Numbered from the stretch's first letter, positions 1,969 through 47,875 are shown. The stretch: 64,000 bases of DNA from Rhodothermales bacterium (GCA_964291275.2 OZ219799.1:2334914-2398913); one strand, 5' to 3'. Notes: generated by a model not told the origin, from the letters alone. Numbers and translations are program-made.

Positions 1969-2011
1969 GTTATCACCAGATTGCACGCAAAGAACTCATA
2001 GCTTAAGCAGT

Positions 2012-3016: not shown

Positions 3017-3019
3017 TCG

Positions 3020-19539: not shown

Positions 19540-20130
19540 GGGTTAGACTCGCCGAACCTTTCAGCGTGAGAGTCTACCAAACCGATTGGGGTGTGCAGCA
19601 AGAGCACTGATCGTTTCTGCCACATTCGGTTGCTGGATCCTGATACAATTGAGGCTGCTTCTCCGCTGCGTTGATACAGATCCAACCTGCTCCTCCACGC
19701 CACCTGGGCATTTCATCACTCACTTGGGTCCCTCACGGTCAACTGATTTTGGAGTACTCCCACAGGGATCGTCATCTGAGAGAACTTGATACCGCGCAAG
19801 GTAAAGTGTGCTGATGCCATTGGTCGGTCTCCTATATGAGACAGTTCGTCTTGCAGCATGGGGAGTCAGATTTGAAGGGAGGATGATTGAGACACGCTGG
19901 TAGACGATCCCGAACACTGGCCGTCCTATTGTCTATCTGTACGAAAATGCAAGATCACCAGAGGGATCTCTACAAGCCACGGGTCACCTTGTAACAGCGC
20001 GCTATTCAGTTGTAGATATTCAATCAACTTGCGGTTCGGAACGGTAATACAGCGAGCATTCCCGGAGCACATTGGTTGTATTCTGTGCCAACTAAGGTCT
20101 TCCATCAACTTTACATGAACGGGCCATCCG

Positions 20131-21222
20131 TTACTCGTCCGACGGCGGGACGAATCGGTAGCGGATGATCGTAGGATTGATGACTTCTTCGGTGGGCTCA
20201 TCTCCCGGATCACTCACAATATACAACCTTCCATTCTCGGCAACCTCTGGAGTCTCCTCAAACCGAGTGCTGACAGCTGGAAAACGATCACTGTGGCTGG
20301 CAATGATTGCTCCTTTAGTCAGCTCCTCATTGCTGGAATCAATAGAATCGTACACGATCATGCGTGTCTCGTTATCAAGCGTAAACACCCCAATCACGCT
20401 TGTTGCCTCGGCTTCAGCTTCATCAATCATTCTAGTAATTTCTCGAAAATTGGACTGATCCACTAATGGATACTCTGGAAAATCCTGAATCCGCTCCACG
20501 AAAAAGTCTGGTATATACTGGGTCAGCCCCGCACGGGGTAGCCGGGGAGTGGCATCAAAATTTTCTGAATACACCCACCAAACATCGTCATTAAAACATG
20601 CAATGTTGAGTCCCGAGTGTGTCAGCATAACGGACGCCCGTCTTTGGAACTTGGGCGTAGGGAGTGGGAATTTGTCAATGAGCGTAAAGTCCGAACTGTA
20701 GGCTCGAATGAAAGTGTTTTCCCTGATATCACGCGGCATGGCAAATATGGTATCTCGGTACGAGCATAGCCCCCACGTATTGGTCGCCAAATCCCCGTCA
20801 GTGCTGGTCTGAACGCATTCCCCATTCTGACCTAAAACGATCGCCCCCTTGTTAATCAAAACGGCAACGTGAGAGTCGTCCAGGAATGAAGCTTGTGCGT
20901 TGAAACCGAAGTTTGCTTCGGGATTGCAGTTGGTGATTACCATTGTCCAAACTAATATTCCGTCTGGCGAAAACAGGTGTACGCCCTGACTTTGGATATC
21001 AAGTACCAAGAGCTCACCTTTGGAATTCGCATCCAGACGCCATCTCGAACCGAGCAAGACCGTACTATCAAGTTGGACTACACTCTCCTGTACAAAGAGA
21101 TCTTCAAAGTCCATGTGAGTCGGAGTCAGAATCTGATCAACTGCAGATCTAGAGTTGCAGCCACCGACCAGGCAAGCCAACAGCCCGGCAGCAATAATGG
21201 GTGTACAGTGGGGGAATTTCAT
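20131..21222 (-). CDS. Hypothetical lipoprotein (possibly a beta-propeller fold)
   Basis: Lipobox LVGGC after a signal sequence; 363 aa; no catalytic motif recognised. Confidence 0.5.
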   Translation of the reverse strand: MKFPHCTPIIAAGLLACLVGGCNSRSAVDQILTPTHMDFEDLFVQESVVQLDSTVLLGSRWRLDANSKGELLVLDIQSQGVHLFSPDGILVWTMVITNCNPEANFGFNAQASFLDDSHVAVLINKGAIVLGQNGECVQTSTDGDLATNTWGLCSYRDTIFAMPRDIRENTFIRAYSSDFTLIDKFPLPTPKFQRRASVMLTHSGLNIACFNDDVWWVYSENFDATPRLPRAGLTQYIPDFFVERIQDFPEYPLVDQSNFREITRMIDEAEAEATSVIGVFTLDNETRMIVYDSIDSSNEELTKGAIIASHSDRFPAVSTRFEETPEVAENGRLYIVSDPGDEPTEEVINPTIIRYRFVPPSDE

Positions 21223-21395
21223 AGGGGCAGAGCGGGGATGCCTTGGTTTATTGCCTGAGGAGCAGCTGTGACTGCCACAGTATATGCACGCATAACAACA
21301 CTTGCAAGTGGTAACGTTTTAGGGTGTAATCCTATTTTTTATGGTCCTCAAGAACGAAAGACGGGGAGTAGTTCCCGAAATTCTGCATGCAGTAT

Positions 21396-22565
21396 TTATT
21401 CACCCAAGACCTCAAACTTATTATTCTGCACCCGGGCAATGACTGGACTAGTAACAGCGTCACCATTCTCATCAAAGGAAAATGACCCAAAAATGGAGTT
21501 GAATTCTCTTATTTCGGCTAATCCATCCCTGATTGAGGCGGCATCATACATTGAAACTCGGTTCAACGCCTCTCCCAGGATGGTTACGGCAGCGTAGCCA
21601 CGAGCGGCAAAGTCTCCCGGCTCCTCGCCGAATTTACTGTGGTAGTTATCTACAAATACTCGACTGGCCTCAACCGTAGAATTTGGTAACCATACCTGAA
21701 ATGTGATGACACCCTCTGCGGCGCCAGGCTCTGCATCATTTACGGCATGAATGACATCAATCGAAATAAAGTTAACAATAAACGGTGTGCGAAGTCCGAA
21801 CCGGTGTGCAGCCACGAGCGTGCCGGTTCGTCCCTCTGGCAATGCAGAAAGAAAGATGACATCAGGTGTGGGGACTGCATTTTGAATTGCGGTCAGTTGA
21901 GCCGTAATATTCCCAAAGTCTGTTCCCTGAGGAAGTCGGTACGAAGCCGAATGAACAATGGTCACATCACTGTACGTTCCCAGCTCCTGCGTTATGAAAT
22001 CGTTGCTGCTGACCGAAAATGCATCCACCTTATTAACCAGTGTCGCAACGTTTTTGTAGCCCAGATGCTTTTTCGAAATGCGCACACCTTCCGGTACCGT
22101 ACGGCCTACGGTGAGCGACGAGAGAAACAAGAACTCACTTTGTGCACTCAAGCCGCTGCGTGCTGCGGTGGGACTGATTGTAGCTACTTTTTTGTTGTTG
22201 ATTAGCGGGATCGCGCGTTCCGTTTCGGATGAAGTTGCAGGTCCAATAATGACCGGCACTCTGTGTTCATCCGCCAGTCGAGAATATGCGATCAGGGCGC
22301 TATCAATGTTGCTCTCACTGTCCTCTATAATGAAACGAAGACGAAACGGCTCTCTAGCATTGATCTCTTCCAGAGCCAGATCCATGCCATTCAGAATTCT
22401 CTGTCCCGCTACACCCAGAGTACCTGAGAGCGGCAGGATAACCCCTACTGGTATTTCCACGGGCTCAACTACTTGGTCGCAGGCTGAAGTATTGAATATC
22501 AAGCCTGCGATCATCAGTGCTGTAACTGTATTTCGTCCAATTGAGTGATGAATTCTGGTCATCAT
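21396..22565 (-). CDS. Periplasmic substrate-binding protein, LivJ/branched-chain-amino-acid-type (Peripla_BP_6-like), orphan
   Basis: VGVILPLSGTLGVAGQRILNGMDLALEEIN and VIIGPATSSE, typical of type I SBPs. No permease or ATPase gene is adjacent. Confidence 0.7.
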   Translation of the reverse strand: MMTRIHHSIGRNTVTALMIAGLIFNTSACDQVVEPVEIPVGVILPLSGTLGVAGQRILNGMDLALEEINAREPFRLRFIIEDSESNIDSALIAYSRLADEHRVPVIIGPATSSETERAIPLINNKKVATISPTAARSGLSAQSEFLFLSSLTVGRTVPEGVRISKKHLGYKNVATLVNKVDAFSVSSNDFITQELGTYSDVTIVHSASYRLPQGTDFGNITAQLTAIQNAVPTPDVIFLSALPEGRTGTLVAAHRFGLRTPFIVNFISIDVIHAVNDAEPGAAEGVITFQVWLPNSTVEASRVFVDNYHSKFGEEPGDFAARGYAAVTILGEALNRVSMYDAASIRDGLAEIREFNSIFGSFSFDENGDAVTSPVIARVQNNKFEVLGE

Positions 22566-23277
22566 GATGATGTTTAGGATTCAAAGATGTTCTTGAACCA
22601 GAAATTGTATCTATGGTTACTTATGCGTATTCGTCATTTTGATACGTAGCAGGCTTGGTTTGGGCCTCAAGTGTTGTTCAGCCTTATCACCTTCCTTCTT
22701 CTTGTGCATTGGGGTACTTCTTGACTTCCTCCAACGAGCACCCCATTGACCTGTTGCCCCTGATTGAATTGCAACTGCCTGTAGCAGTTGTAGGTTACTA
22801 TCATCGTCCTGCTTGCCGTTTCAACTCAGCGCTATATGGTTTACATAGAATGTCTCGGAACGCCCTCCGCTTTACTCGCCGGGAAGGATACCTCTTATGT
22901 TCTTCGAATGGTGAGCGTTCTTCGGCTGGACCAACGTATCGGATCTGTGGATTGTTTTGGGGATGAACAAGCCCAGTTCTTTGTGAAACTGCCGCAATAT
23001 CAGGTCATGTGCGTTCGCTGAGATATCTATGTTGATTCACCGACGATTCAGTTTTTCAGCTGTGATACAAGCGGTCGTACACCCACAGAACGGGCCGAGG
23101 ATCAAGCCGCCCCTACTTGTTGCTGTTCGACTTGGCAATGCGTTCTAAAAGGCAATTGACTTTTGTATACCGTAGTTACAATTCTCTTTGATCTTGCGAA
23201 ATTTTCTTATTTTGCGCCAATGGAGTAATTTCGAATTCTAACTCCCAACAGTTCTGCTGACGGCCCTAGACCTAACG

Positions 23278-24156
23278 ATGCCGGAGATTCCAGAAGTACG
23301 CCTTGATACTGCGAGTGAGCTATGGGATCAACTTAGCTCCACCAAGAGGCAATCCGATTCGGACAATCGAATAATTTATCGGGGCCACGCAAACGCTAAG
23401 TGGGAGATAAAGCCAACGTTTTTGCGGCAGAAGTCTCTCCAACTACAGCAAGAGCTGTGGTCTGCTCCTCTTACTTGTGAGCTCTTGGCATGGATAGAAT
23501 TCAGGAAATTGCGACTCTTCATCCACTGTTGTGATGAAAACGGAGTGGAGGTTCCCAACGACTCGCTTGAGTTGCGCAATACAGTATTCTCTGACATTAA
23601 CTTCAGGAAGCATCACGAATTTCCGTCTACTTGGCCCTCTGACGAGTTCTTAGAAATAATGGCATTTGGGAGGCTGCACGGGTTGCCTACAAGACTCTTG
23701 GACTGGTCCACTAATCCATATGTCGCCGCCTATTTTGCTGCGAGCGAGGCATTGTTCTCACAAGACGATTGGGTGCCAGGTCAGAGAATTGCAATATTTG
23801 AGCTAGACTTCGGGCCTGTAGAAACCACGTATTTGGGAAAGGTTAGACTTCTCCAAATCAGGGGCTCCATTTCGCCCAACATTGTAGTGCAACAAGGCAT
23901 GTTTACCTTGCACCCTTTAGTTGGGAATAAGAACGAAATGGCAGAAGTAAAAAGCCTTGAAAAGTACCTGTCACCCCGCTCTGAACCACCAATAAAAGCG
24001 TTTACAATTCCAGTATGTCAAGTTCCAGAACTTTGCAAGCTGTGCGACACTTTCGGCTATAATGCCGCTCGCCTATACCCCAGCCCTGAGGGGGCCGTTA
24101 GGGCCATGCGAGAATCCGATATGTACAGACTTGCACGGAAGAATGGTCAAGGATAA
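23278..24156 (+). CDS. FRG-domain protein
   Basis: IIYRGHANAKWEIKPTFLR (Y/FRG motif), GRLHGLPTRLLDWSTNPYVAAYFA and VVQQGMFTLHP match the conserved blocks of the FRG domain. Confidence 0.7.
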   Translation: MPEIPEVRLDTASELWDQLSSTKRQSDSDNRIIYRGHANAKWEIKPTFLRQKSLQLQQELWSAPLTCELLAWIEFRKLRLFIHCCDENGVEVPNDSLELRNTVFSDINFRKHHEFPSTWPSDEFLEIMAFGRLHGLPTRLLDWSTNPYVAAYFAASEALFSQDDWVPGQRIAIFELDFGPVETTYLGKVRLLQIRGSISPNIVVQQGMFTLHPLVGNKNEMAEVKSLEKYLSPRSEPPIKAFTIPVCQVPELCKLCDTFGYNAARLYPSPEGAVRAMRESDMYRLARKNGQG

Positions 24157-24362
24157 GAGACCAGATCACATTAAGGGTAGGCTAGCTTCGCGGCCCAAGT
24201 TGGAAAAATACCCTGCGAGACAAGATCCACCTAAGAGTAATCCAATGTATGATCAATCAAGGGACGGCTACTCTACGGTCCTAGTGTATTTGACGACCAC
24301 GCTTAGCTGTACCGTACCTATGTCGGCAGAGGCGTTCGGAATATGCTTTGAACCTGGACTAG

Positions 24363-26048
24363 ATGAGGGTTATGAAAATTACATCCATCGAAATACATAA
24401 CTTTCGGAGCATTCTGGAGTGCCGTCTGTCGTGTCGCGACATGCTCGTTCTGCTCGGCCAGAACAACCATGGAAAATCAAATATTATCGGTGCCTTGGAT
24501 TTTGCACTGAACTCGTCAAAGCCGAATATAGACGACCTCTTTGCCCTCGCTGAGCCTGGCGATAAAACGATATGGGTAGAAGTCTCATTTGGTCGGTTGA
24601 CCGACCAAGAAAAGACGACATGGAGAAAATATGTTCAAGCTGATGGCATTTTCTGCTTTCGGAAAACAGCTAGTTTTGACGATGAAGACAGGGTCGACGT
24701 CAAATACAACGGCTATGTGTCTGAACCTAACGAAGAATGGTTGAAAGCAGATAACGTGCGTAACTACATGAAGCGCGACGTAGTTTCTGGAACACCGCTG
24801 AGTCCCTATATTCCGGAGTCAGGACGAGTCACCAAAGCTATGATTGTAGCGGCCCAAGAGCAGTATATCAGAGAGCACAGTGAGGATTTAAATTTCAGAG
24901 TAGCCCTCGAGGAAGGCCCATTGCTTGGCCAGAAAAACGTAGCGAAAGGCGTTCTGCCAGAATTTTTCCTAGTTCCCGCTATCCGTGATTTGAGCGACGA
25001 GTCGAAAGTCAGGAATACTGCACTCTTCGGGAAACTTCTTACCTATACAGTCAAGGAAATGGCGTCCAGGAATCCTCTCTTTCATAGCATTGAAGAACAA
25101 CTCAGCGAGTTGGTCAATGTGCTCAATGCAGGGCCGAAAACCGAGGATCGCCCTCAGCAGCTCACTGATCTTGAGTCTTCTATTCAGCAAGAACTAACTG
25201 GATGGGATGTGCGTGTTTCTGTGGAAGTGACACCGCCGGACATCTCTAAAATCATTGAATTGGGGACGGAAATCCATCTCAACGATGGCCTTAAAACCTT
25301 GGCCAAACGCAAAGGACATGGTCTACAACGTGCCGTGATCTTTGGTCTCATGAAAGCATGGGCAAGGGTAATGCGCGGGTCTGATGCAGCGGACGGAAGC
25401 ATTACTGCACGCAGAGCGTCTGAATCAGTTATTTTCGCAATAGAAGAACCCGAGCTTTTCTTGCATCCACATGCACAACGTACTTTTAACAAGGCCCTTC
25501 GAGTACTTTCAGAAGGTACTAATAGTCAGGTTATCGTTAGCAGCCATTCCACACATTTCGTGGACTTGGACGACTACCGAGGTATTGCCCTGATTCGAAA
25601 AGAATCTGTCGAGAAGGGCACTATCTCGGTACAATGCACTGAGGACTTATTTGAAGGAGAAGCTGACCGAAAGCGCCGATTTCATATGGCCACATGGGTG
25701 AATCCAGATCGCGGCGAGATGCTCTTCGCTCGCCGAGTAGCATTCGTTGAAGGTGAAACTGGAAAATTACTCTTCCCGTTCCCTGCCGAGAAAATGGGTT
25801 GCCATTCGGAGGATGTTTCCATAATTGATTGTGGTTCGAAAAACAACATCCCGCTCTATGTAGCCATTGCTGAGGCCTTCCATCTCAATTACGTCGTTGT
25901 GCATGATCAGGACTCGTTGTCCAATCTGAGTTCCCAAAAATTGAACACTAAAATCAAGGAATTGGTAGGCGAGACAGGTTCGGTCGCAGTCTTACGACCA
26001 GATTTTGAGGACTGTGGTCAGGTGCCCAAGAGTGAGGGTCAACGATAA
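24363..26048 (+). CDS. OLD-family nuclease: N-terminal ABC-type ATPase (AAA_15-like) plus C-terminal TOPRIM
   Basis: MKITSIEIHNFRS start (the alternative ATG at 24372 is more likely the true start). Walker A is GQNNHGKSN and Walker B/D-loop is IFAIEEPELFLHP. TOPRIM-like motifs are VAFVEGETG and VVHDQDS. Confidence 0.8.
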   Translation: MRVMKITSIEIHNFRSILECRLSCRDMLVLLGQNNHGKSNIIGALDFALNSSKPNIDDLFALAEPGDKTIWVEVSFGRLTDQEKTTWRKYVQADGIFCFRKTASFDDEDRVDVKYNGYVSEPNEEWLKADNVRNYMKRDVVSGTPLSPYIPESGRVTKAMIVAAQEQYIREHSEDLNFRVALEEGPLLGQKNVAKGVLPEFFLVPAIRDLSDESKVRNTALFGKLLTYTVKEMASRNPLFHSIEEQLSELVNVLNAGPKTEDRPQQLTDLESSIQQELTGWDVRVSVEVTPPDISKIIELGTEIHLNDGLKTLAKRKGHGLQRAVIFGLMKAWARVMRGSDAADGSITARRASESVIFAIEEPELFLHPHAQRTFNKALRVLSEGTNSQVIVSSHSTHFVDLDDYRGIALIRKESVEKGTISVQCTEDLFEGEADRKRRFHMATWVNPDRGEMLFARRVAFVEGETGKLLFPFPAEKMGCHSEDVSIIDCGSKNNIPLYVAIAEAFHLNYVVVHDQDSLSNLSSQKLNTKIKELVGETGSVAVLRPDFEDCGQVPKSEGQR

Positions 26049-26497
26049 GGAAAGCCACTCGCCGCTTTAGACCACTTTGATTCAGTTACAGCCGATCAGA
26101 TTCCACAGCAACTCGTTGACATGATTCGGCTAGTTTACGGAGATACATAATAAATATGCATCCTCTCCGGTCCTGTCCACACGGATATGATCTCGCTCCG
26201 TTTCTAGCAAGCATAGTCATTATAGAATCCCCTGCGCTTTCGCGGACTTTCACCTGCTACACTTATCAGTTAGATTGTCGGGTTGCTGAACTTTTCCCAC
26301 CCACGAACCATCCCAGAGCTGCTCAAGACCTAGCTTCAAAATAGGTCCTAAGTCCTATTTGTTACAAAGGCAAAGGAAAAACTGTCCGCACTGATCTCGG
26401 TCTCGCAACAACTTCGGGGTTCCCCGTTTAGGGGGAATTTACTCCGGTCCTCCCTTAAGCTGGCGCCACTTGTGACATCGGGATTCCATGGTTGTGA

Positions 26498-26830
26498 TCA
26501 GTACAGTTTATTTTTCTCGTGCTTAGCCATACATGTGGGCTGCACATGCAGCTTCAAGTTCCTTCTTAACCTGTCTGGAAAAGTCTGGGTTGCTAATCTT
26601 GGAGGCAACATTTCCCGCTTGTGCCACTGACATCGCTGAATCGGTGCCCGATCTCCAAATACTTCTCGAACTCCTTTCTGCAATCCCTTGCATCCATCTA
26701 ATAGAACCAGCAACGAGCCCGCAGGCTGGAAGCCTCGTTCCTGTGATTCTGGAGTAGTGCGACCACGCAGGTATGCGCTTCGGTTTTGGTTTCCATGAAA
26801 GTGAACTGACAGAAACCAACATACGGCATC
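26498..26830 (-). pseudogene. IS256-family (Mutator-like) transposase remnant, frameshifted and truncated
   Basis: LLDGCKGLQKGVREVFGDRAPIQRCQWHKRE matches the IS256 core (D..GL...I...FP....QRC..HK.RN). The continuation NVASKI...DFSRQVKKELEAA is in another frame. Both the N and C termini are missing. Confidence 0.65.
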
Positions 26831-26876
26831 CGAGTTCGAGGGTGCGCGTTGTGTATGACTACGTAGGGTATTTCAG

Positions 26877-27614
26877 ATGAGAGTGTCCAAGCGCGTTATC
26901 TTCGCCTTCTCAATGACCATGCTATCTGCTGTCTCCGCGGTGACCTTTGCTCAGCCAATCTGCACCGTAGAAGATCTCCCGCGCGAGGCGACTGGCCAAG
27001 GGCGGCTAGCAGTCAGGCTTGATGGCGCATGGCAGCTATTTACCCAAGACGAGGCCGGATCCGCATACATCATCGAAATCGGCGGGCTCCAGAGCCTGTG
27101 CATTGCTTGGGAAGCACCTCCCTACGACAATGCTCGCCGGCAGATCGTCTATGTTAGCACCAAATACAGAGACAAACAGCCGCTGTGGCTCTTTCGAAAC
27201 AATGCGGCAGCTGGTCTTCCATTCGTTGGCAACCTACTGGGCAACTGGAGCCGGACACCCGATGCCTCGGGTTTAGATCCCGATGAGGCTTTCAGAGAGT
27301 TTCATCGTAGCCTCCCTGAGGATCCTTCTGAGCCCCCGTGGAACAACCTTACCACTTGGCACGACACGTCGGTATGGTTGTCCAATGTTAGCAGCTACGA
27401 GTTGGTGGTTGGTGCCACAAACAGCCTGCCCGTGCTTCCCTACGGTTCGGAGCGACTATTGAGGCTTGCAGGACATCGTCCACTCACCTCATGGGTACCG
27501 TTTACAACCCGTGCTCCGTCTGGGCAAAACGAACTCCGCATAGCGGTTTCCTATACAGGTGATCTTGATAACCTCGGCCCGGATATCTACCAGTACGTAT
27601 TCCGAGTCAGGTAG
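26877..27614 (+). CDS. Hypothetical secreted protein (signal peptide)
   Basis: N-terminal signal sequence ending AVTFAQP; 245 aa; no recognisable domain. The stop is 8 nt before the next ORF. Confidence 0.5.
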   Translation: MRVSKRVIFAFSMTMLSAVSAVTFAQPICTVEDLPREATGQGRLAVRLDGAWQLFTQDEAGSAYIIEIGGLQSLCIAWEAPPYDNARRQIVYVSTKYRDKQPLWLFRNNAAAGLPFVGNLLGNWSRTPDASGLDPDEAFREFHRSLPEDPSEPPWNNLTTWHDTSVWLSNVSSYELVVGATNSLPVLPYGSERLLRLAGHRPLTSWVPFTTRAPSGQNELRIAVSYTGDLDNLGPDIYQYVFRVR

Positions 27615-27622
27615 CTCTGCCC

Positions 27623-28123
27623 ATGCGTATTAAACACGAAGCCCGCCAAGTACTGAACGCGTTTGTAGGTCTCTTCACTCAACCGTTTAAACAGGATATT
27701 AATGCCTCTTTGAAGGGAGCTGTCACTGCGATCCTGCTCGCCATGTTCCCCGGCTTACCACTCTTGCTCAACGGTGTAATCCAGATAGAGGCAACAAAAT
27801 TTGCCGCCATTAGTCTCGTGCTCGTCCTCTTTTGGGCACTCTTGACGGCTATCTTCACCAAGCAGGACAGGCGTGAGTTGGCGATTGCTCGTAACCTCAC
27901 CATCCTGTCCTTTTGGATCGCTGCCACATTGGTGATCGTCTATTTGGTGAACATCATAGTCCCCAATCCTCTTGATGGAGCCTTACGTCGGGGAGTTGCA
28001 ACGGCCATGCTTATCCCCTTGATCTTCATCCACATGATTTGCAACCTGCCTTGTTTTCCAGCACTGAGAGTGGCATTCTCCCTGTCGATCAGCACCGTTT
28101 TATTGGTTTGGATGGTACTGTAA
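27623..28123 (+). CDS. Hypothetical integral membrane protein (about 4 TM)
   Basis: Four hydrophobic stretches. It is tightly coupled to 26877-27614. Confidence 0.5.
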   Translation: MRIKHEARQVLNAFVGLFTQPFKQDINASLKGAVTAILLAMFPGLPLLLNGVIQIEATKFAAISLVLVLFWALLTAIFTKQDRRELAIARNLTILSFWIAATLVIVYLVNIIVPNPLDGALRRGVATAMLIPLIFIHMICNLPCFPALRVAFSLSISTVLLVWMVL

Positions 28124-28358
28124 TGGCGATGTGTCATGGATCACTCGCGTCCATGTGTGTGTTGACTGGCGGCCTGTGGATAACATGGATGTTCCAAGGT
28201 CGCAGGGAATCTCCATTGTTTTGCACCAGAATTCCTTCTGACATGTGTGGTTTTGCAGGGGTCTCAGCTGCTTCTAATTAATAGTCCGGCAATGATCTGC
28301 TAAGCCTGCGAAATGAATAAGTGTAATATCTTTACACTTTGAAGACTTGAGCCCCAGC

Positions 28359-28522
28359 ATGGATAAGTTGAAGATGCACACACCTGATCTGAGTCAGGAA
28401 AATATCCTGAAGATTCGTAGTGCCTTCCCCAGCTGCGTAACCGAGGTGTTCAACGAAGCGAGAGGAGAATTACGCCTAGCGGTGGACTTTGATCTGCTTC
28501 GCCAAAAATTGAGTAATCATAT
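28359..28522 (+). pseudogene. mod: Type III R-M methyltransferase (Mod), N-terminal 54 codons, cut off by an IS insertion
   Basis: MDKLKMHTPDLSQENILKIRSAFPSCVTEVFNEARGELRLAVDFDLLRQKLSNH is the conserved N-terminus of Type III Mod proteins. The reading frame resumes in phase at 32022 (IIEGPQERYRLDWPGKRQ). Confidence 0.8.
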
Positions 28523-28778
28523 GAGCTAGTTGCAAAACCCATTTTGTTGCAACTGGTGAATCGGCCAATTCGGGACATAAATGGGTCTGATTTTCTTGGA
28601 ATACGTGAATGATTGGCCTGTGTTCACCGCTTTCTTCGAAGCTGTGGGTGATTGACCTTCAACGAGGTGTTAACTTGGAGAATTTTGTCCACGATCCGTG
28701 CGGACTCTACGCATCGATCCCACGGCTTCTGTATTCCAGAACCCCCCAATTCTGTACGCGACCACTCGACGATCCGGT

Positions 28779-29909
28779 TTAGTGGACCATCCGCAGCAGT
28801 TGATCCACCGTGAGCACAACAATTCCAAACATCAGGTGACACATCACTTTGCTGTGCCCACGCACCCGTACATGGCGTCCACCAAACTCATCTTTGAGTC
28901 GTCCAAAGACCCGCTCCACGGTCGAACGTTCCTTGTAGCGCGCCCGCTCAGGTGGAATAAACCCGGCACTGCGCTGTGCCTTCTGCTCACGACGGTGCGC
29001 CGCCTTTCGATTACGCGGATTCGTGTCAATGATCGGCACATGTCCCGCTGCCGTACTGTGTGCGTGAATCTCCTTCGCGTCATACGCACTATCCATGAGA
29101 TCATAGCAGTTGTCCACCCGCTCACCCGTCATGGTCGCCAATGGAATGGCCGCTTGGCTATCGTGCAGGGACGCGGAAGATAGCATACAGCTGATCGGAA
29201 TCCCGCCGTCTGCTGCATCTATATGTAGCTTATATCCCGTCCAGGATTGCGTATGCCCTTTCGCATTTCGCTTGCTCCCCACCGTGCACGCCTTGGGCAA
29301 ATCCGCCAACATCTCCGCTTTGTTCATGGTACGCTGGCGCTCCAAACGCGTGGGGACCTTTGGACGTTCCTCCCCCTTCCGTGGACGCCCACGCTTGCGT
29401 TTCACCGGTTCCGGCGCCTTTTTCTTCGGCACCGGCTTCTCTCTTGCCTCAATCGCCGTCGAATCCCGCGAAATATGGCCCACCAACGAATCCGCGTAGC
29501 TCTCCTGAATCAAGACTTCGTGGATCCGTGTCGGTAACTCGGACTCCGCAAACTCCTTGAACGCACGGGAAAATGTGGACGCACTGGGCACATCCCGCTG
29601 CCGCGACCAACCACACATCGACCGAAGCAATGGGTCCGAAAGTAGGCGCTCTCGCAATCCGGCAGTCGTCGGAATATTCAAGACCATCTTGGCCAAAAAC
29701 GACCGTGCAAGCGAAACCCGAGACGCCAGCGGGCGCCCCGGCGTACGGAACGAGGTGCGGGACAGAAAATCCTCTACACACGCCATCTCGAATACCAACA
29801 ACAACTTCTGGTACCGTTTGGGCAACGAACCAAATTCCTCCTCCACCCAAGGAAACAATTCTCGTTGGCAGGCAATATAAAAACCTCGTGTTTTCTTCCT
29901 AAGGGACAT
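28779..29909 (-). CDS. DDE transposase, IS4/IS5 superfamily (DDE_Tnp_1 with DUF772-like N-terminus)
   Basis: The C-terminal YKERSTVERVFGRLKDEFG matches the Y-2-R-3-E-6-K signature. There is a basic KRKRGRPRKGE linker. Start taken at ATG 29909 (MSLRKK...), because the 8 upstream codons of the ORF run into the intron's 5' end. Confidence 0.8.
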   Translation of the reverse strand: MSLRKKTRGFYIACQRELFPWVEEEFGSLPKRYQKLLLVFEMACVEDFLSRTSFRTPGRPLASRVSLARSFLAKMVLNIPTTAGLRERLLSDPLLRSMCGWSRQRDVPSASTFSRAFKEFAESELPTRIHEVLIQESYADSLVGHISRDSTAIEAREKPVPKKKAPEPVKRKRGRPRKGEERPKVPTRLERQRTMNKAEMLADLPKACTVGSKRNAKGHTQSWTGYKLHIDAADGGIPISCMLSSASLHDSQAAIPLATMTGERVDNCYDLMDSAYDAKEIHAHSTAAGHVPIIDTNPRNRKAAHRREQKAQRSAGFIPPERARYKERSTVERVFGRLKDEFGGRHVRVRGHSKVMCHLMFGIVVLTVDQLLRMVH

Positions 29910-29915
29910 GGGAGA

Positions 29916-31810
29916 GTGTGCCACGAAGTACACGGAGGTGAGTCAATGACATAGCCGAAATGTACGAACTGTATAAGGGATGGGGGACGGCCCCCCGCAA
30001 TCGCCGTGCAGGCGGAGGTTGCAAACCGCCCACAGCTGCTGCACTAAAGAGGTGTGGTGGTGAGCGTGCTGGGAAAAGGCAGGTGTAGGAACCTGTCAGG
30101 TGAGAGTCGTAGAGTCGAACGCAAGTGAATCACGGATGACGAGTCGAAAGTCCTTAGAAGATGGTCAAAACCGGGGTATTCTCCTGATCCCGGGACGAGG
30201 TTGGCGGGGACCTGCTTACTGGCCAACCGGCCTCCGGCATAAACGTGGCGAGAATGCGACTTGGGCCCTTATACGGAACGTGGGAACGTGTCGGAGTGAT
30301 GAGAAGGGAGCGTGGCAAGCAGGCAGTACCTGTAAGCCATTGAGTACCAAGGCACTCCACACGGGCGGATCACCTCGTAGTAGTGATGAGACTCCTGTAA
30401 CGGGAGAGGAGCGAAGGGGGTGAACCATGCAGCAGGACGCGAGGAAGCAACCGAAAGGGAGGACTTCAACGCAAAACGCAAAGCCGTTTCCAGTGACCAA
30501 GCGACAAGTTTGGGAGGCGTGGAAGCGTGTAAAGGCGAACCAAGGCGGGGCGGGGATCGATGCGCAGTCCATCGCAGATTTCGAGGCCAAGCTTGCGGAT
30601 AATCTCTACAAGCTCTGGAATCGAATGGCATCGGGCAGTTATCATCCACAGCCGGTGCGACGGGTAAATATTCCGAAGTCGGACGGAGGCGTCCGGCCCT
30701 TGGGAATCCCAACCGTTGCGGATCGGGTGGCACAGATGGTGGTGAAGCAGGTTTTGGAGCCGGAACTGGAACGAGAGTTCCATCCCGATTCCTATGGATA
30801 CCGACCGAACAAATCGGCCCATGACGCACTCCGGCAGACGCGAACGCGATGCTGGAAGCGGGCCTGGGTACTGGACATGGATATCAAATCTTATTTTGAT
30901 ACGATAGACCATGCTCTGTTGATGAAAGCGGTCCGGCTACACACGGATCAGAAGTGGGTGCTCTTATATATAGAGCGTTGGCTGACGGCACCGGTGATTC
31001 ATCCAGACGGGACGGAAGAGGCTCGGGATGTTGGGACCCCGCAGGGCGGGGTAATCAGTCCGCTGCTGGCCAATCTGTTTCTGCATTACGCGTTTGATAA
31101 ATGGATGGAACGGAGGTATTCGCACATTCCATTTGAGCGGTATGCAGACGACATCGTATGCCATTGCACGACAAAGAAGCAAGCGCGCTACCTCTGGAAG
31201 GTGCTGAGGGAACGCTTTAAGGCTTGCAACTTAACCTTGCACCCAGTGAAAACCAAGATTGTATACTGCAAGCAGGCATACTTTCGGGGTTCATTTCCAA
31301 ACACTTCGTTCGATTTTCTGGGGTATACGTTTCGACCGCGGAAGACACGGAGTCGGAGGGGGAGGAATTTTCTTGGGTTCAATCCGGCGATAAGTCGGAA
31401 GGCGATGAAGGCCGTACAAGAGACGATCCATGGTTGGAGGTTGGCTCGAATGAGTCCACACCCGATTACGTACATAGCGGGCAAGATCAATGCCACGGTA
31501 CGTGGATGGATTGATTATTACGGTGCGTTCTTTAAATCAGCATTAAGGCGGCCATTGGAAGGCATTGACCGTCACCTAACACGGTGGCTAATGCGGAAAT
31601 ATAAACGTTTCCGTGGTCGGTGGCTTCGGGCGTTTACGTGGTTAATAGAGCGTGCTCGTCGGGATTCGGGATTGTTCGTGCACTGGGAGTTTCTTCATGG
31701 TTCACCTTTATTCAATTCCGAACGGCTGCATGGTAGGAGCCGTGTGAGTTGAGAGGCTCACGCACGGTTCTGTGAGGGCCGGGGGGTGAGATTCCCCCCG
31801 GCTACTTGAC
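29916..31810 (+). mobile_element. Group II intron, copy 2 (intact IEP), nested in the IS and antisense to its transposase
   Basis: Collinear with copy 1 along its whole length but clearly diverged. It has the same GUGUG 5' end, domain V at 31737-31770 and a 3' end ...ggctacttgac at 31810. Confidence 0.85.
30427..31752 (+). CDS. Group II intron-encoded reverse transcriptase/maturase (no endonuclease domain)
   Basis: 441 aa with RT blocks ([28 protein letters not shown]) and maturase X domain (RGWIDYYG). The stop codon lies inside domain V. Confidence 0.9.
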   Translation: MQQDARKQPKGRTSTQNAKPFPVTKRQVWEAWKRVKANQGGAGIDAQSIADFEAKLADNLYKLWNRMASGSYHPQPVRRVNIPKSDGGVRPLGIPTVADRVAQMVVKQVLEPELEREFHPDSYGYRPNKSAHDALRQTRTRCWKRAWVLDMDIKSYFDTIDHALLMKAVRLHTDQKWVLLYIERWLTAPVIHPDGTEEARDVGTPQGGVISPLLANLFLHYAFDKWMERRYSHIPFERYADDIVCHCTTKKQARYLWKVLRERFKACNLTLHPVKTKIVYCKQAYFRGSFPNTSFDFLGYTFRPRKTRSRRGRNFLGFNPAISRKAMKAVQETIHGWRLARMSPHPITYIAGKINATVRGWIDYYGAFFKSALRRPLEGIDRHLTRWLMRKYKRFRGRWLRAFTWLIERARRDSGLFVHWEFLHGSPLFNSERLHGRSRVS

Positions 31811-32021
31811 CTCCGGTTTTCGTGGAAAATTTCGACACTGATTGATACGAAATCCGGGGGACTCCGGTCCCTTTTTTAGGCCTATCGAGGGATGTTCCTA
31901 TGCTCGGGGCGGATACAAATCCCAATCACAATCGCCTCCTCTACCCGGAGGCACCAACCAGAAACCATGACCTCAAAATTCCAAAAAATCCCCCGATTTG
32001 GGAGTTTTGCAACTGGCTCAT

Positions 32022-33833
32022 ATTATTGAGGGGCCGCAGGAACGCTACAGACTTGACTGGCCAGGCAAGCGTCAAGCACTCTTGATTGCAAATTCGCCGG
32101 TCAACAAGGCACTGCGACCCGTAAGGAGTGACAGCCCTCACTTTGATACAACCAGAAACCTATTTATCGAAGGTGATAACCTTGAGGCGCTAAAACTCAT
32201 TCAAGAGATCTATCTCAGACAGATCAAGCTAATCTATATTGACCCACCGTACAATACGGGCAAGGATTTTATCTACCGAGATAAATTTGAATCAGAACAG
32301 ATTCCCCACGAAATAGCATCTGGTGAGCGAACAGAGGAAGGGAGACGTCTTGTTACTAATCCCGAAAGAAATGGGCGATTTCATTCAAATTGGCTTACGA
32401 TGATTGCTCCGCGACTGCGGTTGGCCAAGAACTTGCTGACTAGAGATGGTGCGATCTTTGTATCCTGTGATGAGGGAGAACAGCCCCGCCTGCGCATGGT
32501 CATGGATGAAATCTTTGGTCAATCCAATTTCGTTGCCGATATGGTGTGGGCGGCCGGTCGCAAGAATGATTCGCGATTCGTATCCGTCTCGCATGAGTAT
32601 ATCGTTTGTTACGCCCGTGACTCTGCATATCTCAGCGAAAACAAAGTAATCTGGCGCCAGCGAAAGAAAGGGTTGGAAGACATTTATTCCCAGTATTATC
32701 GCTTGAAGCGCCAACACGGAAATGATTTTGAGGCAATCACGCAGGGTCTTAAGAAGTGGTATTCAGGCCTCGCTGATAGTAATCCCGCGAAAAAGCATAA
32801 GCATTATTCCCACGTTGACGCTCGGGGAATCTACTTTCCTGATAATATCTCATGGCCTGGTGGTGGCGGACCAAAATATGAGGTGCTTCATCCAGAGACC
32901 CAAAAGCCAGTAAAAATCCCATCTAGCGGTTGGCGCTTCAGTAATCCGAAGCTAATGCAGGAACGGATTAACGATGATCGCGTCCACTTTGGCGAGGATG
33001 AGAACTCAGTTCCTTGCATTAAACGTTACTTGAAAGACAATGAGCGCCAAGTACCGTACAGCGTTTTTTACCAAGATGGACGTGCTGCATCTAAACGTCT
33101 GCGGGCCCTCATGGATGGAAAATTTTTTGATTACCCCAAGGACGAATTGATTCTCCAGGAAATCATTGAAATGGTAACCAAGGATTCGGATATTATACTC
33201 GACTTCTTTGCAGGATCATCCACCACCGCACATTCCGTGATGCTTCAGAATGCCGCTGATGGAGGAAATCGCAAGTTCATCATGGTGCAATTGGATGAAG
33301 CGGTAAACGAGAATTCTGAGGCTTTCAATGCCGGTTTCAAGACTATACCTGAAGTTAGCCGAGAGCGAATCCGCCGAGCAGGACAGAAAATATTAGAGGA
33401 GGATTATCACACTGACTGGAATCAAGATGTGGGCTTTCGATCGCTTAAGGTGGATTCATCAAACATGAAGGATGTTTATTACCGCCCCGACGATGTAAAA
33501 CAATCTCAACTTTGGGAGATGGTGGACAGCGTTAAAGATGACCGGACGCCTGAGGATCTGCTGTTCCAAGTGCTGGTTGACTGGGGCATAGACTTAACAC
33601 TGCCGATTCGACAAGAGATTGTCCATACAAAAACCGTTTTCTTTGTTAACGAAAAGGAACTGGTGGCATGTTTCGACCAAGGCGTGACCGAGGAAATAGT
33701 GAGGGAATTAGCAAAACTTACTCCCTTTCGTGTCGTCTTCCGCGATAACAGCTTCGTCTCGGATGCAGTAAAGATCAACACACAGCAAATATTTCGCCAA
33801 CTTTCTCCTTCGACAGACTTGAAATCAATCTAA
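32022..33833 (+). pseudogene. mod: Type III R-M methyltransferase (Mod), C-terminal about 600 codons
   Basis: IIEGPQERYRLDWPGKRQ continues the 28359-28522 fragment. Motif IV is IDPPYNTG and motif I is DFFAGSSTT. An in-frame TTG at 31998 inside the IS end could allow an N-terminally altered product. Confidence 0.8.
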
Positions 33834-33847
33834 ATGAAGGGGCGTAT

Positions 33848-36800
33848 ATGAAGCTTAAATACAAAATTCAACAGTACCAAACCGAGGCTGTTGATGCAAT
33901 CATTGATTGTTTCAAAGGACAGCCAAAGGCTGATGCTCTCCATTATAGAATCAATCCTAGTACGGGAGGGGAACGACAGTATAACCTTCAATATGATCTT
34001 CAGACCGGCTTCAGGAATAATGAGATTCTTTTGAGAGATGAGGATCTCCTAGAAAACATACAAGCGGTGCAGAATCGCCAAGGCCTACCGTCTTCCAGAA
34101 CACTTGCGGATTTCACGACGCTAAACAGAAGGGGCATCCGTAAACCCGTCAATCACCGTTACAAGCCGGGGGCAAAGATCAACCTTGATGTTGAAATGGA
34201 GACTGGCACCGGCAAGACGTACTGCTACATCAAGACTATGTTCGAGATGAATAGACAGTATGGCTGGTGTAAGTTTATCGTTATGGTGCCAAGTATTGCA
34301 ATCCGTGAAGGTGTCCAAAACTCTTTCCAGGCCACAGCAGAGCATTTCTCAGAAACCTTCCAGAAAAAGGCTCGCTTCTTTGTGTATAATTCAAGGCACC
34401 TCCAAGAACTGGAAAGTTTTTCGTCCGATGCGGGCATCAATGTAATGATCATTAATATTCAAGCCTTCAACGCAAGAGGAGCTGATAATCGTCGGATTTA
34501 CGAAGAACTGGACGAGTTTCAATCAAGACGCCCGATTGATGTGCTCAGTGCAAACAGGCCTATCCTTATACTGGACGAGCCTCAGAAAATGGAAGGCAAC
34601 GCCACACTTGGAGCTCTGCCAAAGTTCAAACCATTAATGATCCTGCGGTATTCTGCAACACACCGTACCCATCACTGCCAAGTACACCGGCTTGATGCGA
34701 TTGATGCTTATGAGGGGAAGCTGGTTAAAAAAATTTCGGTGCACGGTATCCAAACACATAGAATTTCCGGCACAGATGCCTATCTATTTCTTGATGGTAT
34801 TGAAGTCTCCTCCAAAGCCCCAGTCGCACGGATTGAGATTGAAGTAAAGCTCAGGTCCGGTAAAATCATACGCAAACTCAAACGTCTCTCCGAAAATGAT
34901 GACCTCTATCATGCTTCAAATAGGCTTGAGCAGTATCGTGGTTATATAATATCCGACATTAAGCCTATCCTGAATATCGTTGAATTCATCAATGGAAAGA
35001 AGCTGTCTGCCGGTGAGGCAATCGGAGATGTAAATGAAAACGATATCCGCCGCTTTCAAATCCGCGAAACAATCAAAGCCCATCTTCGGAAGGAACATCA
35101 ACTCTTTTTGCAGGGTGTCAAGGTACTCTCACTTTTTTTTATTGACGAGGTGAAAAAGTATCGGGACTACGAGCAAGTAGATGAAAAGGGCGAATATGCG
35201 CACATCTTTGAGCGCGAATATAAAGCGGAACGCGATTATTATCTCGCAAAATCAGTGGATCATGATGAGCCCTATCGAAACTATCTCACAGAGATTGACC
35301 CGGCCAAAACCCACAACGGTTACTTTTCTATAGATAGGAGCGGGCGTATGGCAAATCCTAGTAGGATCAAGAAGCGAGGTGAAGGAAAAGGGACCTGTGA
35401 TGATATTTCTGCCTATGACCTCATCCTAAGAGAGAAAGAGCTTCTCTTATCCCTTGAAGAGCCAACCCGCTTCATCTTCTCGCACTCTGCTCTACGTGAA
35501 GGCTGGGACAATCCAAATGTCTTCGTCATGTGTATGCTGAAACGTAGCGAAAGCAATATCTCACGCCGCCAAGAAGTTGGACGTGGCTTACGACTCTCAG
35601 TTGATCAGAACGGAGACCGAAAAGATCATCCTGCTACGGTCCATGAGATTAATGTACTCAGTGTCGTGGCGAGTGAAAGCTATGAAAATTTTGTCCGAGA
35701 ACTCCAAACTGAAATTGCAGACACACTCTCAGCACGACCTAGAAAAGCAGATCAAGCCTATTTCAAAGGGAAGTTTATCCAAACTCAGGAAGGTCCAATT
35801 GAGATATTGGAATTAATGGCACGACGAATTTATCAATATCTGGTCAGGAACAACTTCGTTAATGACATGGATGAAATCACGGGTACCTATCGTCAAGCCA
35901 AGGCGGCAGATCAACTGCCAGACATGGGAGAATTACAACCCTATCGTTGCCAGATTATTGAGCTAATTGATAATCTGATTGACGAATACAAATTTCCCAA
36001 GATTGATGACGGGCGGAAGACAAAGATCAATCGGCTGAACGCTAACTTCAGAAAAAAGGAATTCAAGGAACTCTGGGCAAGGATAAACCGAAGGGCTATC
36101 TATCAGGTCGATTTCGACACAAGGGAATTAACAGAAAAATGTGTCAGTGCATTGAATGAAAATTTAAATGTCCCTTCTTTGCAATACACCCTGAAGGTAG
36201 GAACTCAGAGGGAGGAATTGACTAATAGCCAGATACATGGTCTAGATGGCTTCACTGTCACAGGCAGAAAGACAGAGAGTGGTCCGGTCATTCGGTCATC
36301 GGTGAAATATGACATCGTAGGTAAGATTGCTGAGAAGTCACAGATTACCCGAGCTACTGCTGTAGATATTCTCTCGAAGATCAAGCCCCAGTCCTTCGAA
36401 CAGTTCATGGACAACCCCGAGTACTTTATCTCAGAATCCTCTCGTATCATCAGAGAAAAAATGGCCGCTATGGTTGTTGAGTGTCTTGTATATGATGAAA
36501 TCGACGAGTGCTACGATATCAACATTTTTACTGCCAACCAGACTGGTCAGAACTTTTCTCGGGCTACGAAAAAACTTCAACGCCATATCTATGACTTTGT
36601 AATCACGGACTCAGAAATAGAGAGAAGTTTTGTGAAAGACTTAGATACAAGTAGCGAAGTAACTGTCTATGCTAAGTTGCCTCGTGGTTTTCTGATTCCA
36701 ACCCCCATCGGCGACTACAACCCCGACTGGGCAATTTCTTTCAAATTTGCCACCCACAAACATATCTACTTCGTGGCCGAAACGAAGGGGTCAATGTCTT

Positions 36801-36955
36801 CCCTTGAGTTTCGAGGTAGTGAAGGGATTAAAATTGAATGTGCCCGAAAATTTTTCAATGAAATTAGCAGACAGATTGACGCGGATTGTGCCCAATATGA
36901 TGTGGTTACTGACTATGAGAGCTTAATGAAACTTGTTGCTCCCAGCAAAAAATAA
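33848..36955 (+). CDS. res: Type III restriction enzyme Res subunit (SF2 helicase plus C-terminal PD-(D/E)xK nuclease)
   Basis: METGTGKTYCYIKTMFEM (motif I), ILDEPQKMEG (motif II), and YNPDW...YFVAETKGS nuclease motifs. It begins 14 nt after the mod stop. Confidence 0.85.
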   Translation: MKLKYKIQQYQTEAVDAIIDCFKGQPKADALHYRINPSTGGERQYNLQYDLQTGFRNNEILLRDEDLLENIQAVQNRQGLPSSRTLADFTTLNRRGIRKPVNHRYKPGAKINLDVEMETGTGKTYCYIKTMFEMNRQYGWCKFIVMVPSIAIREGVQNSFQATAEHFSETFQKKARFFVYNSRHLQELESFSSDAGINVMIINIQAFNARGADNRRIYEELDEFQSRRPIDVLSANRPILILDEPQKMEGNATLGALPKFKPLMILRYSATHRTHHCQVHRLDAIDAYEGKLVKKISVHGIQTHRISGTDAYLFLDGIEVSSKAPVARIEIEVKLRSGKIIRKLKRLSENDDLYHASNRLEQYRGYIISDIKPILNIVEFINGKKLSAGEAIGDVNENDIRRFQIRETIKAHLRKEHQLFLQGVKVLSLFFIDEVKKYRDYEQVDEKGEYAHIFEREYKAERDYYLAKSVDHDEPYRNYLTEIDPAKTHNGYFSIDRSGRMANPSRIKKRGEGKGTCDDISAYDLILREKELLLSLEEPTRFIFSHSALREGWDNPNVFVMCMLKRSESNISRRQEVGRGLRLSVDQNGDRKDHPATVHEINVLSVVASESYENFVRELQTEIADTLSARPRKADQAYFKGKFIQTQEGPIEILELMARRIYQYLVRNNFVNDMDEITGTYRQAKAADQLPDMGELQPYRCQIIELIDNLIDEYKFPKIDDGRKTKINRLNANFRKKEFKELWARINRRAIYQVDFDTRELTEKCVSALNENLNVPSLQYTLKVGTQREELTNSQIHGLDGFTVTGRKTESGPVIRSSVKYDIVGKIAEKSQITRATAVDILSKIKPQSFEQFMDNPEYFISESSRIIREKMAAMVVECLVYDEIDECYDINIFTANQTGQNFSRATKKLQRHIYDFVITDSEIERSFVKDLDTSSEVTVYAKLPRGFLIPTPIGDYNPDWAISFKFATHKHIYFVAETKGSMSSLEFRGSEGIKIECARKFFNEISRQIDADCAQYDVVTDYESLMKLVAPSKK

Positions 36956-37210: not shown

Positions 37211-38437
37211 ATGAAACGTGTCACATTCCTTTTGGGAGCAGGAGCTTCCATTCCCGCCGGATATAGTTCCACCCATTGCCTGACAGAGCGAATACGAGCT
37301 CCGAGCGGTTATTATCGACACACAGATGAAAGATATTACCGTGGGCCTCCCTGTCCCGACACAGATTTTAGAACGCCTCTCGTGCGCCGCATCATTTGCT
37401 GGCTATACGAGCTAGCACATGAATACCTCTTTTATCGTGAGGAATCCAAGGAAATCAATTATGAGGACTTATACTATCTGGCCTCACAATTGGGGGACGA
37501 TTGGTCAGAATTGCAGAATCCGGCAATGCTACCGCTAATACGTAACCTGAAATGTGTAATGATCTCATGGCCGGAATACAGGGAATTCTGTGAGCGATCT
37601 GGTCGCACATTGAGTATCCCTGATCTGCGGGAATTTCACCAACTTTGCGAGGAAACGTGCCACTACATTGAAGACATTGTTGTCAATGTTTTGAGCCATG
37701 ATGGTCAGCATCACCCCAAGCATCTTGCGCTAATTACAGCCATCGGTGAAGCAAATGATCTAGATTTGAAAGGTATTGCAACGCTTGCACATGACACACA
37801 TGTGGAGAATTTTTTATCTGAACAGGGTGTCTCACTCGCAGATGGCTTCAGTCCCGAGCAGACTGACTGTGGTTGGAGAGTCTGGCAGGATCATTTTCCT
37901 GACGGTAGTACCCCATTTCTTAAGCTTCACGGTTCTACCAATTGGAAAAAGCTTCGTAAGGATGGAAACAATAATAGATCTCCTGAGACAATTGGTATCA
38001 ACATGGCAAACTCGGAGTGCTCTTCTCCCTGGCCTGATGAACCCTCAGACCCAGAGTGCTGGAGGAGAGGTTTTGATAGACGGCCTCTTTTGCTAATAGG
38101 TACGTTTAACAAGCCAGCCATGTACACGGGGCCAATGTTGCTGGATGTTCATTATCGATTTCGTAAGATCTTGAGGAATACAGATACGCTAGTTGTGTGC
38201 GGTTATAGTTTCGGCGATAAGGCAATAAATACTCAACTTATTTTTTGGTTGACCTCCTTATCAGGCAGATCTCTTGTAGTGATAGATCCTCGTTGTCCTT
38301 CTCAGATACAGAAAAATGCCCGATACGCTACTCAAAAAATCTTGAATGACCGGGGAACCAGATTAATCAACGAGAAGATGGAAGACGTTCGTAAGGATCA
38401 GTTGCTTGGTCTACTGAGAGGCGTAGATGGGACTTAA
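37211..38437 (+). CDS. SIR2-like (SIR2_2 family) domain protein, stand-alone
   Basis: FLLGAGASIPAG (NAD-binding GAGxS), LKLHGSTNW and VVCGYSFGDKAIN are typical of prokaryotic defence-type SIR2 domains. Confidence 0.65.
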   Translation: MKRVTFLLGAGASIPAGYSSTHCLTERIRAPSGYYRHTDERYYRGPPCPDTDFRTPLVRRIICWLYELAHEYLFYREESKEINYEDLYYLASQLGDDWSELQNPAMLPLIRNLKCVMISWPEYREFCERSGRTLSIPDLREFHQLCEETCHYIEDIVVNVLSHDGQHHPKHLALITAIGEANDLDLKGIATLAHDTHVENFLSEQGVSLADGFSPEQTDCGWRVWQDHFPDGSTPFLKLHGSTNWKKLRKDGNNNRSPETIGINMANSECSSPWPDEPSDPECWRRGFDRRPLLLIGTFNKPAMYTGPMLLDVHYRFRKILRNTDTLVVCGYSFGDKAINTQLIFWLTSLSGRSLVVIDPRCPSQIQKNARYATQKILNDRGTRLINEKMEDVRKDQLLGLLRGVDGT

Positions 38438-47428: not shown

Positions 47429-47875
47429 ACCTCAACGCAAGCTTATTATGTGCAATAATAGGCGCCTTTCCGTGGCGGGTGTGTGCCACGAGATACACGG
47501 AGATGAAGCAATGAGTAACCAAAATACACTGAATTGTGCAGGGGAGGAGGGATTCTCTACCATTTATTCGAGGGCGTTGTAGAGTCGGACGCCGTGCCCC
47601 CCTGACCCACCTGACACCTACGCCGCAAAATCATCAGGTTAGCACAAAACTCAGTATTATTTATCGAAAAGTAGGACAATTCCTGCATGAAGGATTATAT
47701 TCTGGATTCGTAGAAACAGCACCTGCCGGATTGATTGCCTGACTCTCCCAGCGGTTGGTATTGCAATCAGTATTAGGTTACAGTGCGATTCGCCGTTATG
47801 ACGGATATTCCGAAGCTGTGGCATAATTGCCGGGTATATAGGCTCTCCGCTTTGCCGCTCAATAATTTATGAGAA

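Follow-up and report, generated by a model that had tools for sequence, protein, structure and literature searches.

In EcoP1 and EcoP15, two restriction-modification systems of Type III, the modification subunit Mod carries target recognition and stabilises the restriction subunit Res, the amount of which depends on Mod (PMC3874151). A naturally broken system is known from Pseudomonas syringae pv. actinidiae, where a Type III methylase is disrupted by a mobile element beside the endonuclease gene (PMC6053426). Among group II introns, RmInt1 is found in the insertion sequence (IS) ISRm2011-2 and blocks the spread of that IS (PMC5894124). Here we describe a locus in which these themes meet, a mod-res operon at positions 28359-36955 of a stretch of 64,000 nucleotides from a Rhodothermales bacterium (GCA_964291275.2 OZ219799.1:2334914-2398913). 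This whole stretch is called the window, and all coordinates refer to it unless a contig is named.

Our results showed that the locus is a disrupted member of the Type III restriction-modification family, with a single lesion, in mod. We consider it very probable that the operon was acquired horizontally, lies in a defence island and was inactivated when an IS1182-family element inserted in codon 55 of mod. An earlier inspection of the DNA alone (the sequence-only reading) had proposed that an IS holding a nested intron interrupts mod while res stays intact, and its coordinates for mod, the IS and res were all borne out.

The split mod gene and the intact res gene

The 5' fragment of mod occupies 28359-28522 (+) and holds codons 1-54 plus 2 nt. 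It starts at the ATG at 28359, a start that the homologues share, and opens with MDKLKMH...SNH. As it stands, the open reading frame (ORF) runs through these 54 codons and two residues encoded by the IS (MS) to a stop at 28527-28529, which gives a product of 56 residues. The 3' fragment, at 32024-33833 (+), comprises codons 55-657 and the stop, its first base completing codon 55, and it is identified by Pfam N6_N4_Mtase, by the MTase_III profile and by EcoP15I Mod. Deletion of 28523-32023, that is, the IS and one copy of ATAT, yields an ORF of 1,974 nt that encodes 657 aa with no internal stop, and the rebuilt junction reads ...KLSNH-IIEGPQERYRLDW... (SNH-IIEGPQ).

Profile searches of the separate and the joined parts gave a consistent picture. 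The 54-aa peptide had no Pfam match, and its detection needed the Type III-specific PADLOC profile MTase_III (PDLC03634), which it matched at positions 2-49 (E 7e-9); the 3' fragment alone matched positions 51-621 of the same profile. The rebuilt Mod covered positions 2-621 of 621 in one stretch (E 9e-213), and this occurred only once the IS had been removed.

A search of 5.8 billion proteins provided homologues of Mod, and the best 120 were aligned. Their lengths are 527-681 aa, mostly 655-664 aa, and full-length identity among them reaches 81%, with a coverage of 99-100%. The rebuilt Mod aligns with all of these without a gap at the junction, and 118-120 of the homologues agree in nearby columns (e.g., G58, E61, R62, and Y63). 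The junction in the homologues is mostly S-[DEN]-[HS]-I-V-E-G-P-Q, and a few have exactly H-I-I-E-G-P-Q. The sequence-only reading had taken the 54-codon ORF for the N-terminus of Mod, had held that excision of the IS and one ATAT would restore a Mod of about 657 aa, and had expected the junction in intact relatives; the profile match and the alignment bear out each of these proposals, the junction mostly in the form with valine.

In the numbering of the rebuilt Mod, DPPY (motif IV) is at 128-131 and FAGS at 450-453 (FFAGSS 449-454; motif I, FxGxG). This order, DPPY before FxGxG with the recognition domain between them, is that of a beta-class N6-adenine methylase. EcoP15I Mod aligns with residues 55-516 (E 9e-83). 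The uninterrupted mod of Type III systems is missing here, as the ORF stops at 28529 and its remainder lies 3.5 kb away. For annotation, the two ORFs should be treated as one disrupted gene.

The res gene (33848-36955, +) is intact and encodes 1,035 aa. Its ATG lies 14 nt beyond the mod stop at 33833, and the two genes are co-oriented, with mod first. Res has matches to Pfam ResIII, DEAD, and RE_endonuc, helicase motifs (GTGKT at 120-124 and DEPQ at 243-246) and a C-terminal PD...ETK nuclease motif at 959-980. It spans positions 1-986 of the 989 in the REase_III profile (1,065 bits), is similar to EcoP15I Res (E 6e-68), and aligns with positions 1-963 of the 986 in the NCBIfam type III endonuclease model, at 371 bits for a cut-off of 564. 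It also aligns from one end to the other with Res (1,031 aa) from an intact mod-res pair on a metagenome contig (L099), in which the gene order is the same. The proposal that res carries no lesion thus agrees with its full length against both the Type III profile and an intact partner. Judging from these matches of Mod and Res, the system belongs to Type III of the restriction-modification systems, as had been proposed. Members of this class are expected to cleave DNA with ATP, for which two unmethylated sites in inverse orientation are needed, and to methylate one strand only.

The insertion sequence and its nested intron

The IS extends from 28523 to 32019, with its transposase on the minus strand, and measures 3,497 bp, or 1,602 bp when the intron is subtracted. 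It is flanked by a target-site duplication, ATAT, whose left copy (28519-28522) and right copy (32020-32023) match perfectly. The terminal inverted repeats are GAGCTAGTTGCAAAAC at the transposase-3' end (28523-28538, +) and GAGCCAGTTGCAAAAC at the transposase-5' end (32004-32019, -), which match at 15 of 16 positions. Elsewhere in the window this motif was not found with one mismatch or fewer and was found a single time with two mismatches; shuffled sequence gave a mean of 0.06 matches.

The transposase is of the DDE type (Pfam DDE_Tnp_1 and DUF772) and has 376 aa plus the stop (28779-29909, -). It starts at the ATG at 29909, upstream of which the frame holds no other start codon. The start reported by an ORF finder, a GTG at 29933, was rejected since it is intron sequence, the 5' end of the intron being at 29916 by comparison with a second intron copy. 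The annotated start of the transposase therefore belongs at 29909.

Relatives of the IS were sought in a scan of GTDB genomes, which found 356, of which 79 loci were kept; both ends could be located in 54. Most of the 79 transposases match from residue 1 to residue 374-376, and the closest, 74-76% identical, are in metagenome-assembled genomes (MAGs) of Rhodothermales. The 54 copies with both ends are 1,444-1,637 bp long and have the ends GAGCC..TTGCAAAA in common, as well as the inverted-repeat core of the window IS. Nearly all have 4-bp duplications, with no fixed sequence. No intron was present in any of these 54 copies, and they differ in sequence at the spot where the intron of the window is inserted. 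With a 22-mer at the transposase start, a scan of metagenomes found no further copies of the window IS.

Among the NCBIfam models, the best for the transposase was IS1182, with 93.5 bits; because this is below the cut-off of 270, the transposase is probably a distant branch of IS1182. Plasmid genes annotated as IS1182 family and as ISUnCu17-like are 52% and 44% identical to it, respectively. In the sister population described below, contig L082 has at 2435-2589 a solo copy of the left end of the window IS, terminal repeat included, which is 155 nt long and 84% identical. There is no transposase nearby, and this copy may be a remnant or a derivative resembling a MITE (miniature inverted-repeat transposable element).

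The nested group II intron (29916-31810, +) is 1,895 nt long. The Rfam models RF01999 (109 bits; gathering threshold 36) and RF00029 (58 bits; gathering threshold 40) recognise it, with the group II domains, including the catalytic domain V and domain VI, at 29982-30101 and 31735-31810. Its boundaries agree with the consensus 5' GUGYG and 3' AY, as it begins with GTGTG (29916-29920) and ends with AC (31809-31810), and homology to the second intron copy starts at this GTGTG and ends at 31810. The intron-encoded protein (30427-31752, +; 441 aa) is an intact reverse transcriptase/maturase, with Pfam RVT_1 and GIIM, a score of 438 bits against TIGR04416 (cut-off 300) and YADD at residues 239-242. 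Domain profile searches detected no endonuclease domain in this protein. Looked up by exact sequence, neither it nor Res was present in the assembly collection. The identification of the insert as an IS with a nested group II intron is supported by the inverted repeats, the ATAT duplication and Rfam scores above the gathering thresholds.

The intron and mod share one strand, and the transposase, to which the intron is antisense, is on the other. The intron is inserted within a conserved GGAG-N6-ATG, 6 nt upstream of the transposase ATG, and therefore parts this ATG from GGAG and from everything upstream. With the intron removed, the 5' region of the IS aligns with its relatives, and no gap is left where the intron was inserted. 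Intron-binding site 1 (IBS1) consists of the final six bases of the 5' exon, GGGAGA (29910-29915, +), which pair, with one G-U pair included, with TCTCCT in the loop of exon-binding site 1 (EBS1; 30180-30185, +). Over four intron copies the loop and the 5' exon change together, the combinations in the other three being TATAT/TATATA, TGTTGG/CCAACA, and CGTTGG/CCAACG. This covariation argues that the insertion of the intron was a true reverse-splicing event.

The second intron copy of the window, copy B (5413-7311, +), shares 82% identity with the intron in the IS. We regard copy B as decaying because of the break in its reverse transcriptase gene, which leaves two ORFs (5928-6683 and 6702-7253). 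The EBS1 loop of copy B, GTATATT, fits the 5' exon of this copy (..TATATA). Directly downstream of a Sel1-repeat gene, a fragment of about 72 nt (47481-47552, +) starts GTGTGCCACG and is 75% identical to the 5' end of the group II intron. All three intron sequences of the window are on the plus strand, which has positive GC skew.

Empty site, sister lineage and genomic setting

The closest relative of Mod, 93% identical, led to two metagenome contigs, L001 and L002. They are 96% identical to the window from 19555 to 28522 and pass straight on to 32018-33352, with ATAT present once. They represent the empty site, uninterrupted at this point; the sequence-only reading had called for a search for strains with the uninterrupted allele. 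Most flanking genes are 97-99% identical between the window and this relative. The lesion can be read base by base because a near relative has the empty site and the target duplication is exact.

The identity to L001 is not uniform over window positions 28201-32601. It is only 83-92% over the mod promoter and the first ~190 codons, whereas the rest of mod and the flanking genes are mostly 97-99% identical. This mosaic pattern suggests that recombination may have occurred in the 5' part of mod.

The mod gene of L001 and L002 is intact at the point of insertion in the window, but it is cut after the codon equivalent to 498 (L001 10415-10634, L002 10387-10514; equivalent to window 33352/33353). 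The sequence that interrupts it is the terminus of an IS1634-family element (CCCAAGTTCGCCATTTCATAG...), whose transposase has 675 aa and scores 274 bits for a cut-off of 100. Both contigs end inside this element and cover the near side of the insertion only. In the same metagenomes, at least 16 different flanks are joined to this terminus. The tail of L001 had been considered as the left end of the window IS; this was rejected, as the alignment score was trivial and the tail is the IS1634-family terminus. As the contigs read, mod was hit independently by two different IS families in two lineages.

A related group II intron, 86-88% identical, is found in the sister population (JGI 3300027951 and 3300002147) inside an IS1634-like transposase gene (L092 1152-4912 and L090 1113-2096). 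The reverse transcriptase gene of this intron is in turn cut by the IS1634-family element, which reverses the nesting. Mobile elements are thus nested in both places: in the window the IS contains an intron, and in the sister population a related intron contains an IS.

The operon is surrounded by defence genes (23278-26048 and 37211-38437), among them genes for a PDC-S15/FRG protein, an OLD/GajA-like ATPase-TOPRIM nuclease and a SIR2-like protein. With 0.43-0.48, the operon has a lower G+C content than the flanks. The host appears to belong to Rhodothermaceae; the neighbouring iolD is 91% identical to the iolD of a Rhodothermaceae MAG, on a contig that ends 300 nt upstream of iolD and so does not cover the res region of that relative. 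The named closest intact relatives of Mod (79-81% identity) are mostly from Proteobacteria. In comparison with the intact pair on L099, Mod is 79% identical and Res only 64%. The contrast between proteobacterial Mod relatives and a Rhodothermaceae-like host points to a probable horizontal transfer of the operon.

Directly upstream of mod there are two conserved proteins of no assigned function (245 and 166 aa; 26877-28123). Small ORFs at 26.5 kb were considered as a transposase remnant and dropped, since they had no Pfam match. The window has a second mobile and defence cluster at 970-4171, with an IS1595-family transposase, an EcoRI-type adenine methylase (Pfam E 2e-139) and a GmrSD-N/HNH nuclease; no EcoRI-like nuclease was seen beside the methylase.

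Likely consequences of the insertion and comparison with known systems

The history that we propose begins with a horizontally acquired mod-res operon that would have resided in a defence island of a Rhodothermaceae-like bacterium. An IS1182-family element then inserted into codon 55 of mod by standard transposition, with duplication of the 4 bp ATAT. No functional Mod should be made after this event, and neither methylation nor restriction would be expected. Without Mod no targeted cleavage should occur, because Mod binds the recognition site and positions Res, and the cell would tolerate the mod lesion because Res depends on Mod. The most likely state of the locus, by analogy with characterised systems, is therefore restriction-minus and modification-minus, which would be safe for the cell. 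The earlier suggestion that the loss of Mod silences both activities without self-restriction agrees with the biology of EcoP1 and EcoP15 (PMC3874151).

Reverse splicing, with the EBS1 loop as guide, is the probable route by which the intron came into the IS. The intron would have disabled this IS copy in cis, and the copy could then move only if another one provided transposase in trans. Without such help it is probably immobile because the transposase lost its GGAG and promoter region to a 1.9-kb antisense insert. The antisense intron cannot be spliced from the transposase transcript. Since it has the same strand as mod, it could still be fed by transcription from the promoter of that gene; if such a transcript were spliced, only the intron would be lost and mod would stay broken.

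The event had been described as recent. A recent date is plausible, as all parts (the duplication, the transposase, the intron protein, the mod pieces, and res) are intact and a close relative has the empty site; this recency is in relative terms and gives no date.

Some points weigh against the inactivation that we propose. The null phenotype is predicted by analogy with EcoP1 and EcoP15. In-frame TTG codons at 31998 and 32007 could in principle start a Mod that lacks 54 residues, and a res promoter inside mod, as in EcoP1, might still yield some Res (PMC3874151). We assume that the GGAG upstream of the transposase ATG is its ribosome-binding site, and the analysis covers a single window of the genome.

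The loss of mod might have been selected rather than accidental. Mobile elements would then knock out mod recurrently, because of its cost, to permit the entry of foreign DNA or as an off switch for the population, and the intron would lock the IS in place. The sister lineage, with the same gene cut by a different element, speaks for this. The chance of a second hit in a given 2-kb gene is about 1-3%, a rough value based on ~16 random copies and a genome size of ~3.5 Mb assumed from related MAGs. The double hit suggests either selection or a tolerant target, in two lineages only and in IS-rich genomes. The selective explanation rests on these two lineages, both genomes appear rich in IS, defence islands tolerate insertions, and the far side of the sister insertion is unseen since the contigs stop inside the IS. 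No reversible mechanism is evident, as DDE cut-and-paste elements rarely excise precisely, and an intact res needs no selection if the event is recent. We consider selection unlikely. A stronger form, in which mobile elements are recurrent off switches of this Type III system in a Rhodothermaceae population and an intron with an EBS1 that fits the translation-start region of the transposase freezes the IS and stabilises the restriction-minus state, is slightly less likely again. If it were true and general, one selfish element (the intron) would police another (the IS), and host defence would be affected directly.

It was also proposed that residual Mod might be expressed from the end of the IS. 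[quoted passage not shown] The TTG at 31998 exists, as claimed, with a second at 32007. Upstream of them, the first stop in this frame is at 31968, and there is none between it and the 3' fragment of mod. The methylase motifs, the recognition domain and the C-terminal domain are all downstream of the break. A -35/-10-like pair, TTGGGA and TATTAT with 17 nt between them (31998-32026, +; -35 at 31998, -10 at 32021-32026), spans the end of the IS and the target.

The evidence on the other side makes this partial function improbable. The promoter-like pair comes from a consensus scan in which sites of the sigma-70 type were not above shuffles (2 observed in the region vs. 2.8 ± 1.6), and it would start transcripts downstream of both TTG codons. 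The Bacteroidetes-type promoter motif TAnnTTTG is absent at the IS end and shows no enrichment in the window. Neither TTG codon has a GGAG-type ribosome-binding site at the usual spacing. The path of read-through to the 3' fragment includes a terminator-like hairpin with a T-run between the intron end and the IS end (31854-31880, +; a consensus match only). The missing residues correspond to most of the N-terminal domain of EcoP15I Mod (aa 14-60), the helices of which intertwine in the Mod dimer interface (PMC4490356). The start codon was thus found as claimed, and its expression has no positive evidence.

An assembly artefact, in which repeats were joined chimerically to give the nested structure, is highly improbable: IS and introns are multi-copy and frequent sites of misassembly, and the window has a second intron copy, but both IS junctions are exact (matched inverted repeats and a perfect 4-bp duplication, the length of which recurs in nearly all of the 54 relatives), joining the IS sequence across the intron gives a 5' region free of gaps, EBS1 pairs with the flanking exon, and the two intron copies would not collapse in assembly because they are only 82% identical.

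The inactivation of mod by the IS makes the locus a clean and fully reconstructible case of the decay of a defence system, readable base by base. The first loss was that of the subunit for recognition and methylation, and this order is the safe one for the cell. All components are of known kinds, and broken Type III methylases and introns inside IS have already been described; the locus changes nothing in the knowledge of Type III systems, insertion sequences or group II introns.

In relation to phase-variable mod genes (phasevarions), the locus is alike in that mod is the subunit switched off and the loss of Mod is tolerated (PMC3874151). Phasevarions switch by reversible changes of repeat length inside mod, whereas the lesion in the window has no evident reversal. 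With EcoP15I and EcoP1I it shares two genes on one strand with mod upstream of res, a beta-class adenine methylase as Mod, and a Res with superfamily 2 (SF2) helicase motifs and a C-terminal PD-ExK nuclease, and both subunits are significantly similar. It differs in that mod is split by an IS, and it is thus a pseudogenised member of this group.

The system of P. syringae pv. actinidiae is alike in being a horizontally acquired Type III system with a broken methylase and an endonuclease that is still annotated (PMC6053426). The lesion there consists of an in-frame stop and a MITE, whereas in the window it is a full IS with its nested intron alone. The IS itself resembles the IS1182 family (e.g., ISUnCu17) in its DUF772 and DDE_Tnp_1 transposase, terminal inverted repeats and short target duplication, and differs in its shorter transposase of 376 aa and in the 1.9-kb intron that it holds.

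The arrangement of this intron is comparable to that of RmInt1 in ISRm2011-2 of Sinorhizobium meliloti. In both cases a bacterial group II intron is found inside an IS, it encodes a protein with reverse transcriptase and maturase domains in which no endonuclease domain was detected, it is targeted by EBS-IBS pairing, and the spread of the IS is expected to be blocked (PMC5894124). The host IS of RmInt1 belongs to IS630, whereas that of the window is of the IS1182 family, and the intron described here differs from RmInt1 in that it lies antisense to the transposase, between the GGAG and the ATG.

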